This document shows positions 25,874 to 28,707 of a DNA stretch of 29,412 nt, piece by piece (within the stretch, counting starts at the first letter, position 1; each line of letters opens with the position of its first letter). The DNA comes from a virus (taxonomy: Duplodnaviria; Heunggongvirae; Uroviricota; Caudoviricetes). The position numbers and the translations under genes are program-made. The notes under the pieces are model-generated. The model was not told the DNA's origin. It ran no database searches and saw nothing but the letters and a program-made list of their open reading frames with translations. The stretch lies in the IMG/VR virus record IMGVR_UViG_2609459833_000001; one strand, written 5' to 3'.

Positions 25874-25886
25874 TCATTGGGATTAT

Positions 25887-25934
25887 GCCGCAGCACGTCT
25901 TAAGCAAGAACGTGCTGCGGTTGGATGCTATTTT
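25887..25934. terminator. Hairpin between convergent tfa (+) and methyltransferase (-) genes; T-tract on the plus side
   Basis: GCCGCAGCACG - 13-nt loop - CGTGCTGCGG (10-11 bp stem), followed on the plus strand by GCTATTTTTTCC. Confidence 0.6.
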
Positions 25935-26584
25935 TTCCCTGAAGCGGAAAACATTACTACAGTACCTTGAACCTTGGTTTTAACATTCTCGAAATGCTCT
26001 GAGAGTATATGTGTTAAGCCTTCTTCGGAATCTTTTGTGTTTGAAAAGATGCCTTTCTGATTGTAAATGCGCATCAGTTTTTGACCGAAGCTATTGTGCA
26101 CAACTCCATCGCCAAGAATTGTGGCTCCGTATAGAGTTCCATCGTCAGTTAAGGCCTGCGCCGCATTGCGTATTACACAGCTTTTTGTAGATATATTTCC
26201 AGGCAGGCAGTGAAGAAGGTAAAACATGGAAATGGAATCAAATTGACCATGTAACGCCGCGGGATAAGGTTCAAAAACATCATGGCTAATTTTATGTTTA
26301 ATTTTTGATTCCCCAGCCCTTGTAGATGCCGCGTTCAGGCTAGCTTCGTTCAAATCCATTAAAGATATCAGACTACTCTCAGGTACGTGAGTAAGGTAAA
26401 ACCCAGTTCCAACACCAATATCCAGATGGTTGTTACCTAAATGTTCCAGAAAGTGTGGAAGAAGGTGTTCCTTTGTAGGACATCCCCATGCAAGCCGATT
26501 TGATACTCCCAAAACCCACCAGTCATAAAGCTTTAGGGTAAGTGGTGTGTAAATTCTAGCCCCATCATCTGTGTTTTTTTTCAT
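25928..26584 (-). CDS. Class I SAM-dependent methyltransferase (small-molecule/protein type, not an obvious DNA methyltransferase)
   Basis: Glycine-rich motif I HLDIGVGTGFY, acidic residue in the following strand (SLMDLNEA), motif-II-like DSISMFYLLHCLP. AT-rich coding sequence unlike the phage structural genes. Start placed at the second ATG (MKKNTDDG...) because a TATAAT element abuts the first ATG (26596); the 26596 start remains possible. Confidence 0.7.
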   Translation of the reverse strand: MKKNTDDGARIYTPLTLKLYDWWVLGVSNRLAWGCPTKEHLLPHFLEHLGNNHLDIGVGTGFYLTHVPESSLISLMDLNEASLNAASTRAGESKIKHKISHDVFEPYPAALHGQFDSISMFYLLHCLPGNISTKSCVIRNAAQALTDDGTLYGATILGDGVVHNSFGQKLMRIYNQKGIFSNTKDSEEGLTHILSEHFENVKTKVQGTVVMFSASGKK

Positions 26585-26652
26585 TAATTTCACCATATTA
26601 TAGTTTTATTTGTGAATTAAATCAATTATGGCGATGAATTACAAGGGGTTAA

Positions 26653-26958
26653 ATGCTGCCGCAGCATAGCGATATTGAAATAGCCTGGTATGCTTCGATA
26701 CAGCAGGAGCCGAATGGCTGGAAGACCGTCACCACACAGTTCTACATCCAGGAATTCAGTGGGTATATTGCGCCACTGCAGGATGCTGTAGATCTGGAAA
26801 TCGCAACGGAGGAAGAAAGATCGTTGCTGGAGGCATGGAATAAATATCGGGTATTGTTGAATCGTGTTGATACATCAGTAGCTCTGGGTATGAAGCTGTT
26901 TGTAACTCATGTTACAGTAATGGCCATTACTATCTCGAAGGTGCAAAATGTATATTGA
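26653..26958 (+). pseudogene. Remnant of a second tail fibre assembly (tfa-like) gene: only the conserved C-terminal segment is recognisable
   Basis: 101-aa ORF whose centre ([37 protein letters not shown]) is a near-copy of Tfa residues ~145-181; its N- and C-terminal flanks do not resemble Tfa. Confidence 0.55.
26765..26877 (+). repeat. Direct repeat copy 2 (tfa 3' segment)
   Basis: See copy 1; same orientation. Confidence 0.85.
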
Positions 26959-27070
26959 TTTGATATTTTATAAATTTACTTCGAATCTGGCACGTCAACT
27001 TTTGATTAAAGTAATATCAGTTTTCGACGAAAAAAGGACCGTGTACATGAGACGATTTCATACAAGAATA

Positions 27071-27121
27071 ACAAAAATATGAATATGCTCCCAATACAAT
27101 ATATGTTTTGCATTGGGAGCA
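27071..27121 (-). terminator. Rho-independent terminator downstream of the hydrolase gene (minus strand)
   Basis: TGCTCCCAAT (27086-27095) pairs with ATTGGGAGCA (27112-27121), 16-nt loop; on the minus strand it is followed by a T-rich run (plus-strand ACAAAAATA at 27071-27079). Confidence 0.55.
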
Positions 27122-27141
27122 AATAGCGGAATATTTTGAAA

Positions 27142-28626
27142 TTATTGTATTTCTGCTTCAGAATTTCCTGGGCAGTATATATTTTCTATTTTTTGTGGAG
27201 TGATCAGGTGATGTACAACTGCTTTATCTACACATAAATTAACTCCGGTGAGAGCTAATGTATGCCCATCACCATTTATTGTTAGTAACGGGCTGGAAAA
27301 TTTCTCTGCCATCTTACGGGCATTAATCCAGGGCGTTGTTGGGTCGTATTTGTGTGCTACAAACAGTAAACCAGAGGGCAGAACAGTATTTTTCAGGCGA
27401 GTTTTGTTCAGGTCGCTATGTATTGGCCATAATTCACAAAAATCAGGTGAATCGGAACGTCCATTGTCAAAGTTAATAGCCGGGAAGGCATTCGCAAGAG
27501 CGTCTTTTCGGGATTTTCGCTCTTCTGGTGTTAATTGCTCATCCCCCTGATCTACACAGAGGATTACCCCCGAAGCATCGCTTGACTCTTCTGAGGCTAT
27601 CGGAGCACTGAGCGCAGTTTCAATTTCATTACTGACAATCCCCTGAGAGAACTGGCGTATGGCAGTTGCAAGGGTTGGCCATGATGAACGCCATAGCAGA
27701 AGGTCTGTTGTTAATGATATGAGTTCATCTGAAGATATATTTTCTCCCTTACTGTCTAATAAAGGTTTGTGATGTAATTTTGATAATAGCTCATGGAACT
27801 GAGTTATTGCCTTATCTCTGTCTGAAGAAAGCGGGCAACTTTTTGTACGCGCACACCAGGATGCAAAGCGATCAAACGTTTCCTGATAACTCTGTGCCTG
27901 TTTGAGTTGCCATGTGAAGTTGTCCTCCAGGTCATCGATATCGACGACTCCATCAAGAACGATAGATCTTACGTTGTAGGGAAAACGTTCTGCATATAAG
28001 GCTGCAATTTGAGTTCCATACGAATACGCCACGGCTGTCAGTTGTTTATCCCCCAAGGCTTGCCTAATACGATCAATATCGTATACAGCCTCGTTAGAGC
28101 CGATATGGCGAATGACTTCGGCTCCGGTATTATGGATACAGGCATTAATTTTATTTAATACTTGTTGCTTTTCGGTTATGTTTTCCTGAGTCTCTGTATC
28201 TGATTGCCGGCAGTTTATTGTCGGAGTGGACTGTCCGACGCCTCGAGGATCAAATCCAATAATATCCCATGACTCACGAAGATTTGTGACTGGCCAGTCA
28301 AAGTTAATATAAGGATTTATGCCTGGTAACCCGGGACCACCACTTATTATCAGGATACTTCCTTTATGCTTGCTTTTTGCCGGCAATTTTGTCAACGCTA
28401 GTTTGACTTGTGATTTTTTTTCATAAGAAGCATCTCCGCCTGTGTCTGTATATTTTAATGGAACAGACAAATAACCACATAGTAAGTCAGGAGACGGTTT
28501 TTCCTCACCAAACCAGTGGTTGAATTGACTGGCCATACAGGATTGCCACTGTATCTGCTGGGCAGATACGGTTACTGGTAGAAGTAACGTTAAAACAACT
28601 TTGAAATGAGTAATTATTTTTCGCAT
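27142..28626 (-). CDS. Secreted alpha/beta-hydrolase, peptidase S33 / TAP-like (tripeptidyl or prolyl aminopeptidase-like) family
   Basis: 494 aa from MRKIITHFKVVLTLLLPVTVSA-QQ (Sec-type signal peptide, predicted cleavage after VSA). Nucleophile elbow AYSYGTQ (GxSxG-type), candidate Asp (KYDPTTP) and His (NGDGHTLAL) completing a triad. AT-rich. The ORF-track start at 28734 would run into IS2 sequence, so the 28626 ATG is preferred. Confidence 0.75.
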   Translation of the reverse strand: MRKIITHFKVVLTLLLPVTVSAQQIQWQSCMASQFNHWFGEEKPSPDLLCGYLSVPLKYTDTGGDASYEKKSQVKLALTKLPAKSKHKGSILIISGGPGLPGINPYINFDWPVTNLRESWDIIGFDPRGVGQSTPTINCRQSDTETQENITEKQQVLNKINACIHNTGAEVIRHIGSNEAVYDIDRIRQALGDKQLTAVAYSYGTQIAALYAERFPYNVRSIVLDGVVDIDDLEDNFTWQLKQAQSYQETFDRFASWCARTKSCPLSSDRDKAITQFHELLSKLHHKPLLDSKGENISSDELISLTTDLLLWRSSWPTLATAIRQFSQGIVSNEIETALSAPIASEESSDASGVILCVDQGDEQLTPEERKSRKDALANAFPAINFDNGRSDSPDFCELWPIHSDLNKTRLKNTVLPSGLLFVAHKYDPTTPWINARKMAEKFSSPLLTINGDGHTLALTGVNLCVDKAVVHHLITPQKIENIYCPGNSEAEIQ

Positions 28627-28707
28627 TGTGTCTCTGAATATCGGAATAAAGATAAGATTTGAATATATTGAGGTCTTGTGTTGCGGTAAGAGATTACACG
28701 TTATGAC

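Follow-up and report, generated by a model that had tools for sequence, protein, structure and literature searches.

Introduction

Two minus-strand genes, one for a class I S-adenosylmethionine (SAM)-dependent methyltransferase and one for a signal-peptide-bearing alpha/beta hydrolase, lie between the tail fiber genes and an insertion sequence (IS), IS2, near the right end of the viral record IMGVR_UViG_2609459833_000001, a 29,412-nucleotide (nt) stretch of DNA from the Caudoviricetes (hereafter referred to as the window). This arrangement raises the question of whether the two genes form a functional pair or represent cargo from separate sources, and with which genes each of them is otherwise associated. 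An earlier note, made from the sequence of the window without database searches, placed both genes in an AT-rich island (25874-28707) at the classic moron position of a lambdoid prophage, saw no partner genes suggestive of a known defense system, did not recognize the pair as a described module, and left a joint function open. To this locus we applied homology and structure-based searches of both products, scans for transcription signals, and a survey of 5426 complete Escherichia coli genomes. The reading that we favor, to which we assign a probability of roughly 0.7, is that the island is the cargo end of a DLP12/ev243-type prophage and a mosaic of two unrelated units, with the hydrolase paired not with the methyltransferase, but with an omptin that would lie outside the window.

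Linkage of the hydrolase gene to omptin genes

When the hydrolase-spacer-ompT block of phage ev243 was used as the query, this block was found to be contiguous in 1221 genomes, corresponding to 99% of the 1230 genomes with the hydrolase gene; in these genomes, the hydrolase gene is located directly downstream of ompT. The same order is found on the F plasmid (NC_002483, pF), where ompP is followed, after 104 nt, by a hydrolase gene whose product is approximately 76-79% identical to the window hydrolase at the amino acid (aa) level; 156 of the 186 plasmids with a match carry both genes. The IncF plasmid pCys-11 carries a gene for a 95% identical hydrolase after an omptin gene whose product shares 90% identity with OmpT; this omptin gene (3866-4819 of the pCys-11 locus) is a pseudogene with an in-frame stop at codon 83, and the adjoining hydrolase gene is intact. 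Three further hydrolase variants (77-82% identity by global alignment, 78-82% in the database comparison) are each encoded 92-188 nt downstream of a gene for a 315-aa omptin, in islands that also hold fimbrial, autotransporter, or IS genes. For pairs among these six lineages, the identity between omptins was correlated with that between hydrolases (Pearson r = 0.87, from 15 non-independent comparisons). Finally, E. coli strain Eco_23-3571 carries an independent IS2 insertion in the hydrolase-ompT spacer, with ompT just beyond the element. The partner of the hydrolase in these relatives is thus most likely the omptin encoded immediately upstream, and ompT would most likely be found on the far side of IS2 in the strain from which the window derives. 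A candidate partner gene thus exists, which the earlier note did not name; it would be located beyond the IS2 at the window edge, where a reader of the window could not see it.

The F plasmid ompP region resembles the phage arrangement in that an omptin gene is followed by a co-oriented hydrolase gene and in that the same hairpin occurs after the omptin stop codon; it differs in the length of the spacer (104 nt versus 186 nt), in its plasmid context (int and the RepFIB replication gene), and in the omptin itself, as OmpP is 70% identical to OmpT. The arlC-SDR-mig-14 island (PI-6-like, found on ColV/IncF plasmids) also combines an omptin with companions and also occupies a slot beside int and RepFIB; its companions, however, are an SDR oxidoreductase and Mig-14 rather than an S33 hydrolase, and the analogy is one of position and theme only. 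ArlC and Mig-14 have been linked to antimicrobial peptide resistance (PMC6854850; bioRxiv 10.1101/2020.02.28.965145). The downstream companion of an omptin appears to be exchangeable. On pCys-11, the genes for ArlC (the third omptin of E. coli), the SDR oxidoreductase, and Mig-14 (46488-49954) occupy the slot where F carries ompP and the hydrolase gene. We also considered whether arlB might be the hydrolase gene described here; this was ruled out, as the gene adjacent to arlC encodes the SDR oxidoreductase.

A study on omptins of uropathogenic E. coli gave appY, ymcE, or ybcY as neighbors of ompT (PMC6854850). Our searches of the searchable literature found nothing on the hydrolase, on its protein accessions, or on a neighbor of this kind for ompT or ompP. 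As judged from sequence comparisons, the omptin-hydrolase pair is a conserved, co-diverging two-gene block under purifying selection that is absent from the searchable literature.

Independent occurrence of the methyltransferase and hydrolase genes

A joint function of the two genes in the window was not supported by their distribution. The methyltransferase gene was found in 3799 and the hydrolase gene in 1230 of the 5426 genomes, as compared to only 878 genomes in which both are contiguous; the two genes are therefore independent cargo units. Approximately 2900 genomes have the methyltransferase gene but not the hydrolase gene, as do K-12 and the phages PhiR68_2 and Kati. Conversely, in strain Eco_23-3571 a tail fiber gene and a tfa remnant are followed directly by the hydrolase gene, and the methyltransferase gene is missing. 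The earlier note had proposed to check for co-occurrence of the two genes beside tail fiber genes in other prophages; the block as a whole recurs in 878 genomes and approximately 11 phage records, but the two genes often occur apart. Overall, the methyltransferase-hydrolase block is present in approximately 16% of complete E. coli genomes and represents a catalogued moron region rather than a new system; the hydrolase gene is carried by approximately 23% of E. coli genomes (O157:H7 and O111 strains are among them) and by the F plasmid.

A possible reason for the stacking of separate units at this site was found in the tfa gene. The full-length tfa (25289-25873, plus strand; Pfam Caudo_TAP, 2.7e-45, positions 1-130 of 131) is the last gene of the virion module. 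Between the methyltransferase and hydrolase genes lies a tfaX-like remnant open reading frame (ORF; 26653-26958, plus strand), which aligns with K-12 tfaX, matches only positions 76-121 of the 131 positions in Caudo_TAP, and consists of a non-tfa N-terminus and a C-terminal tfa segment followed by divergent sequence; over 51 aa, it is 76% identical to the C-terminus of the full-length Tfa. At the DNA level, the methyltransferase cassette is flanked by two direct copies of a 132-nt segment from the tfa 3' end (25697-25828 and 26746-26877; 87% identity between copies). Many genomes match only the first 950 nt of the island query (25928-26877), with similarity ending where the second repeat copy ends, and the tfa 3' end can therefore be seen as a joint for exchange or stacking of cargo. 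The conserved tfa 3' end hence appears, from these alignments, to be a recombination joint at which cargo units are stacked.

The same segment is matched by Rfam family RF02111 ("IS009", a candidate E. coli small RNA), which scored above its gathering score at the tfa 3' end (25700-25830, plus strand; 152 bits) and also matched the tfaX-like remnant over the full model (26676-26879, plus strand; 105 bits). This family seems to have been built on the coding sequence of tail fiber assembly genes. Beyond IS009, which overlaps the tfa coding sequence, the Rfam search of the island gave only sub-threshold matches, to its hairpins.

Composition, boundaries, and identity of the island

The shift toward AT-rich composition that the earlier note had read by eye was borne out by calculation, with 41.1% G+C for 25874-28707 as compared to 55.6% for the virion genes that precede it (1-25873); the lowest upstream window of equal size has 47.7% G+C, and all upstream windows of this size exceed the island. 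G+C content at third codon positions is 0.36 and 0.35 for the methyltransferase and hydrolase genes, respectively, as compared to 0.51-0.61 for stf and lom. The content of the island likewise matched what the earlier note had listed: ORF and Pfam analyses confirmed the two intact minus-strand genes, the partial Caudo_TAP match confirmed the degenerate second tfa copy between them, and the right edge coincides with the IS2 terminus TGGATTTGCCCC, with 28708 as the first base of the element. Two strong hairpins complete the island.

The island follows stf and tfa and belongs to none of the virion, replication, and lysis modules, a moron position as previously proposed; it forms the cargo (moron) end of an E. 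coli lambdoid prophage of the DLP12/ev243 type. Eleven phage records cover at least 80% of a 3-kb island query at 98.9-99.6% identity; seven of these phages (ev243 [Nesevirus], 2G7b, PhiR26_1, PhiR29, PhiR30_1, PhiR49_1, and Turner) match 97% of the query in the same range of identity and carry the methyltransferase gene, tfa remnant, and hydrolase gene in identical order, with E. coli as the host for isolation or propagation. Phage ev243 has its tail genes followed by the methyltransferase gene, tfa remnant, hydrolase gene, ompT, and int; in E. coli chromosomes with the same block, ompT-envY-ybcH-nfrA follows. The possibility that the prophage ends before 25.9 kb and that the two genes are housekeeping genes of the host did not survive these matches, as ev243, 2G7b, PhiR26_1, and PhiR49_1 all carry the block, with ompT after it. 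The virion module (705-24921), from terminase to side tail fiber, is 97.6% identical to PhiR26_1 and 96-98% identical across such phages.

The right arm of DLP12 in K-12 is annotated as tfaD, ybcY (pseudogene), tfaX, appY, ompT, and envY. The locus is therefore already catalogued: its methyltransferase corresponds to YbcY, and its tfa remnant to TfaX, of K-12 DLP12. PhiR68_2 has a K-12-like arrangement (stf-tfa-pin-ynaE-ybcY-tfaX-appY-ompT), and its record names the methyltransferase "YbcY". An undescribed locus was thus not supported. The window and DLP12 agree in order, strand, and sequence of tfa, ybcY, and tfaX (99.4% DNA identity for ybcY), and share the ybcY promoter; the lysozyme at the left end of the window is RrrD-like. 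On the other hand, ybcY is frameshifted in K-12 and intact in the window, the slot adjacent to ompT holds appY (encoding an AraC-type regulator) in K-12 and the hydrolase gene in the window, and the virion module that was lost from DLP12 is complete in the window. The ev243-type phages differ from the window in that they lack IS2, and in ev243 the hydrolase gene is contiguous with ompT. A more general likeness is to the lambda morons (lom and bor) and the lambda b region, where non-virion genes near the tail fiber or att end have their own promoter and terminator, deviate in composition, and encode envelope proteins. The proteins found here are different ones, however, and expression in the lysogen is predicted, from in vitro binding of RNA polymerase at the K-12 ybcY promoter. 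We have high confidence (well above that for the overall reading) in the anatomy and homology of the locus as described.

A putative exported hydrolase of the Hip1/TAP type

The hydrolase gene (27142-28626, minus strand) encodes a 494-aa protein with matches to Abhydrolase_1 (PF00561; 3.9e-33) and Abhydrolase_4 (PF08386, TAP-like C-terminal; 2e-14). A program-made ORF list gave a 530-aa version starting at GTG 28734; this is an artefact, as that start lies inside IS2 and the conserved start is ATG 28626. A cluster of 4002 database sequences matches the 494-aa protein at 100% identity. Codons 28561-28626 (minus strand) encode a predicted signal peptide, MRKIITHFKVVLTLLLPVTVSA, followed by QQ, with predicted cleavage between VSA and QQ, in agreement with the earlier note.

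Searches of the PDB matched hydrolase residues 21-475 to Mycobacterium tuberculosis Hip1 (7sfm; E 3.5e-51), and an AlphaFold2 model of the hydrolase (pLDDT 87) aligned to Hip1 with TM-scores of 0.78/0.82 (E 4e-33); TnmK1 and TnmK2 were the next structural matches, after which scores dropped to a TM-score of 0.52 for the next, unrelated fold. The hidden Markov model and structure searches that the earlier note had proposed thus placed the hydrolase in the Hip1/TAP type, as they placed YbcY among the class I methyltransferases (see below). The candidate catalytic residues Ser202 (28021-28023), Asp428 (27343-27345), and His455 (27262-27264; all minus strand) are invariant in 29 homologs with 27-82% identity; the serine is located in a Y-S-Y-G-T turn, and the triad aligns to the Hip1 segments GYSYGT, HDPATP, and QHT that hold S228, D463, and H490. 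The ten cysteines are all invariant or nearly so across the 29 sequences. The dN/dS values of 0.12-0.14, with synonymous sites near saturation across lineages, point to purifying selection.

Hip1 has an S228/D463/H490 triad and five predicted disulfides, and acts as both a protease and an esterase, cleaving azocasein, Ala-Pro-Ala-p-nitroanilide (Ala-Pro-Ala-pNA), Gly-Pro-Leu-pNA, and p-nitrophenyl butyrate (PMC4022732). Like M. tuberculosis Hip1 (Rv2224c, "CaeA") and the Streptomyces tripeptidyl peptidases, the hydrolase shows full-length homology, a fold with a large helical lid, and a Ser-Asp-His triad, and it is predicted to be, like Hip1, an exported protein with multiple disulfides. It is very probably an exported serine peptidase or esterase of MEROPS family S33, TAP type; we infer both Sec export and protease activity from these similarities. 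The differences from Hip1 are nevertheless considerable: identity is only approximately 27%, the setting is a Gram-negative periplasm reached through a plain Sec signal peptide, the gene is phage- or plasmid-borne and omptin-linked, and the Hip1 substrate GroEL2 is irrelevant here.

YbcY as a probable small-molecule or lipid methyltransferase

The ybcY-type ORF (25928-26596, minus strand) is intact, comprises 222 aa, and matches Pfam Methyltransf_12/23/25/11 as well as PHROG 2132 (residues 5-222). As homologs begin at Met5, the true start is probably this residue (26584), giving a 218-aa protein. The SAM-binding motifs are invariant among YbcY homologs, and an AlphaFold2 model (pLDDT 89) shows a Rossmann methyltransferase fold; the seven-strand fold type, the glycine-rich motif I, and acidic residues following strands 2 and 3 were all recognized. 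The top Foldseek match was a phosphatidylethanolamine N-methyltransferase (8ys9; E 7e-12, TM-score 0.61-0.64), with juvenile-hormone acid, phosphoethanolamine, and natural-product methyltransferases scoring nearly equally. These models classify YbcY as a predicted cytoplasmic class I SAM methyltransferase of the small-molecule or lipid type; its sequence contains no signal peptide and no membrane segment. A role as a DNA methyltransferase or in anti-restriction was also considered and was ruled out by the absence of the corresponding motifs and by the small-molecule enzymes among its structural neighbors. A scan of the 222 aa found no (D/N/S)PP(Y/F/W) (DPPY) or PCQ motif, Pfam and NCBIfam searches gave no DNA methyltransferase match, and the length of the protein leaves no room for a target-recognition domain.

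Homologs that are 56-65% identical to YbcY are encoded by stand-alone chromosomal genes with unrelated neighbors in Salmonella, Enterobacter, and Erwinia. Esterases of other families are encoded within approximately 1 kb of these homologs in Enterobacter (a 276-aa alpha/beta hydrolase) and Erwinia (a 510-aa COesterase); there is no esterase neighbor at the Salmonella locus, and the proximity in the other two genera is probably a coincidence.

Transcription signals

A sigma-70 promoter of the methyltransferase gene was predicted at 26597-26625 (minus strand; TTGATT-17-TATAAT, 10 of 12 consensus positions), abutting the annotated ATG. The corresponding K-12 ybcY promoter (TTGATT-17-TATAAC) was recovered by RpoD genomic SELEX (systematic evolution of ligands by exponential enrichment), and the ybcY/tfaX spacer in K-12 is an H-NS site (PMC3946193). 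Given this separate sigma-70 promoter in a spacer bound by H-NS, expression of ybcY in the repressed prophage is probable. The -10 box ends one base before the annotated ATG (26584-26625, minus strand), which, together with the homolog start at Met5, would make for a leaderless or nearly leaderless transcript, as for lambda cI transcribed from PRM.

Of the hairpins that the earlier note had assigned as one terminator to each gene, both proved real, but only that of the hydrolase gene fits its assignment. The latter (27086-27121, minus strand) has the features of an intrinsic terminator, with a 14-bp stem, a U-rich tail, and a folding free energy of -22.4 kcal/mol (z -5.4). The other hairpin (25888-25920; -23 kcal/mol, z -5.9, with none of 200 shuffled sequences as stable), which is GC-rich and sits where the tfa and methyltransferase genes converge, has a U-run on the plus strand only and none on the methyltransferase strand; it is probably the terminator of tfa and the late operon and possibly acts bidirectionally.

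Upstream of the hydrolase gene, 81 nt of the approximately 186-nt ompT-hydrolase spacer remain (28627-28707, minus strand) and can be aligned with the proximal section of the spacers in ev243 and pCys-11. A scan of these 81 nt and of the intact 186-nt ev243 spacer found no consensus sigma-70 promoter at the scan threshold. Co-transcription of the hydrolase gene with the omptin gene is possible. Omptin promoters have been described as PhoP-dependent (bioRxiv 10.1101/2020.02.28.965145).

Proposed function and alternative explanations

We propose that recombination at the conserved tfa 3' end would stack two unrelated cargo units. One of these would comprise ybcY and the tfaX remnant, with a cytoplasmic methyltransferase transcribed from its own promoter; the other would be the downstream half of a conserved omptin-then-hydrolase block. 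In this block, the omptin would act at the outer surface, where it would cleave cationic peptides or proteins of the host, and the hydrolase, in the periplasm, may trim the resulting fragments or process envelope proteins, such that the block would represent lysogenic conversion or fitness cargo rather than phage defense. Cooperation of the two proteins in envelope or antimicrobial peptide proteolysis is suggested by homology and linkage; we regard this suggestion as tentative, at somewhat worse than even odds. More speculative, and in our view rather doubtful as a whole, is the wider idea that omptin and Hip1-like hydrolase form a co-inherited envelope proteolysis cassette, new to description, that moves among phages, F-type plasmids, and pathogenicity islands and acts sequentially on host antimicrobial peptides or proteins, and that, separately, YbcY might methylate a membrane lipid or metabolite and thereby change the surface or physiology of the lysogen. 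If the pairing is real, then OmpT and OmpP phenotypes have been studied without the natural partner of these proteases; K-12 has appY in place of a chromosomal copy of the hydrolase gene. [quoted passage not shown] The useful lead from this locus is thus the omptin-hydrolase linkage; the locus also illustrates the tfa 3' end as a cargo joint.

A number of observations weigh against this reading or limit its reach. The ompT gene itself is not visible in the window, which ends within IS2, and a conserved GC-rich hairpin, found after the stop codon of the omptin gene in the phage, on F, and on pCys-11, makes a shared transcript less certain. The loci of hydrolase homologs in Salmonella (53% identity) and Serratia (45%) have no omptin neighbor, nor was an omptin found near any of 80 distant homolog loci, which are mostly actinobacterial and cyanobacterial (3 of 80 are from Gammaproteobacteria); the linkage is therefore confined to an E. 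coli clade with at least 76% identity. Approximately 60% of the E. coli genomes with ompT lack the hydrolase gene, and the linkage could reflect common descent of a small block rather than a common function. The searchable literature holds no experiment on either protein, so that their activities and the cooperation with omptins rest on homology and linkage. Finally, ybcY is a pseudogene in K-12 and hence dispensable, at least in the laboratory.

The alternatives to an omptin-linked hydrolase and a separate YbcY unit differ in how far the evidence carries them. That both genes are hitch-hiking remnants without a current role, in decaying and silenced prophage DNA, is improbable, even if it is the most credible of the three alternatives. 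It draws on the pseudogene state of ybcY in K-12 and of the pCys-11 omptin gene, on the IS elements that litter this zone in several strains as well as the IS2 in the lysozyme gene of the window, and on H-NS binding to the ybcY/tfaX spacer in K-12. It is, however, difficult to reconcile with two ORFs that are intact in the window and in thousands of genomes at at least 99% identity, with catalytic and SAM-binding residues that are invariant across homologs with 27-82% identity, with a dN/dS of approximately 0.12-0.14 at near-saturated synonymous sites, and with retention of both genes by phages that have been sequenced and propagated.

Moron positions of lambdoid prophages often house exclusion or defense genes, and one or both genes might thus serve in anti-phage defense or superinfection exclusion, with the hydrolase acting on phage proteins or on a receptor, or the methyltransferase acting on DNA. 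The hydrolase indeed matches the PADLOC model PDLC01094 ("C3a206") end to end (6.8e-56). However, this score is no better than that of the Hip1 match; C3a206 is one more distant homolog, and the model was traced to a 3-member cluster near type III-D CRISPR genes in Nocardiopsis that is described only as a "TAP-like protein" (PMC6546367). C3a206 carries no defense evidence and we rejected it as a basis for defense-system identity. No CRISPR or other defense partner is present, the only PADLOC match of the methyltransferase (mad2; E 0.0036) is insignificant, and YbcY lacks DNA methyltransferase motifs and has small-molecule enzymes as structural neighbors. Consistent with these results, the earlier note's statement that no partner genes suggest a known defense system stood up to the PADLOC search, which gave only these two matches and no partner genes. 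The hydrolase gene is found beside omptin genes on F-type plasmids and in fimbrial or autotransporter islands, which is a virulence or fitness context, and we consider a defense role quite unlikely. Less likely still, and largely refuted by the occurrence of each gene alone, is a single methyltransferase-hydrolase module, such as a BioC/BioH-like methyl ester cycle or a joint modification of envelope or host molecules. The genes are adjacent, co-oriented, and equally AT-rich in 878 genomes and approximately 11 phage records, and methyltransferase homologs in Enterobacter and Erwinia have other esterase-type genes nearby; these esterases, however, are of unrelated families, with none at the Salmonella locus. 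In addition, the two genes have a tfa remnant, a promoter, and a terminator between them, and their products are predicted to occupy different compartments, as one is an exported protein with a signal peptide and ten conserved cysteines and the other a cytoplasmic, SAM-requiring enzyme. Distribution, transcription signals, and cellular compartment together led us to reject this module.

IS2 insertions and other features of the prophage

The right end of the window (28708-29412, minus strand) is an IS2 right end with its transposase reading toward the hydrolase gene (C-terminal transposase ORF 28719-29375; Pfam rve/rve_3). It is the reverse complement of positions 1-705 (705 of 705 nt identical), and matching genomes carry an IS2 annotation here. 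Two inward-facing IS2 ends thus bracket a phage segment of 28,002 bp, which extends from R' to the hydrolase gene; the arrangement could reflect two insertions, an inversion between IS2 copies, or breaks of the contig at the repeats. Among complete genomes, neither IS2 junction was found as a single matching piece. The right IS2 interrupts the omptin-hydrolase spacer at a point 81 nt upstream of the ATG of the hydrolase gene, and any upstream control of this gene is therefore cut off; under the omptin-hydrolase reading, IS2 would uncouple the hydrolase gene, which may then be expressed through the residual spacer or by read-through from IS2. The tfa-ybcY-hydrolase-ompT zone is insertion-tolerant. 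In strains N32, Eco_23-3571, and NZRM4165, this zone carries IS2 at three sites as well as ISEc8 and IS1203.

The left IS2 truncates the 5' end of a gene for an RrrD-type lysozyme (669-1031, plus strand), of which Pfam Phage_lysozyme positions 25-125 of 125 are left; the gene is annotated as rrrD in matching genomes. The prophage is damaged and, to judge from this truncation, probably lysis-defective. Rz/Rz1 (1016-1426) and Nu1 (2752-3297) are intact, and the window itself carries lom (21551-22150). Within stf (22209-25289, plus strand), long Ala/Ser/Thr-rich repeats at 22600-23800 are accompanied by an A-over-T skew of up to 0.49, which yields long spurious ORFs on both strands (e.g., 372 aa at 22712-23830, minus strand).

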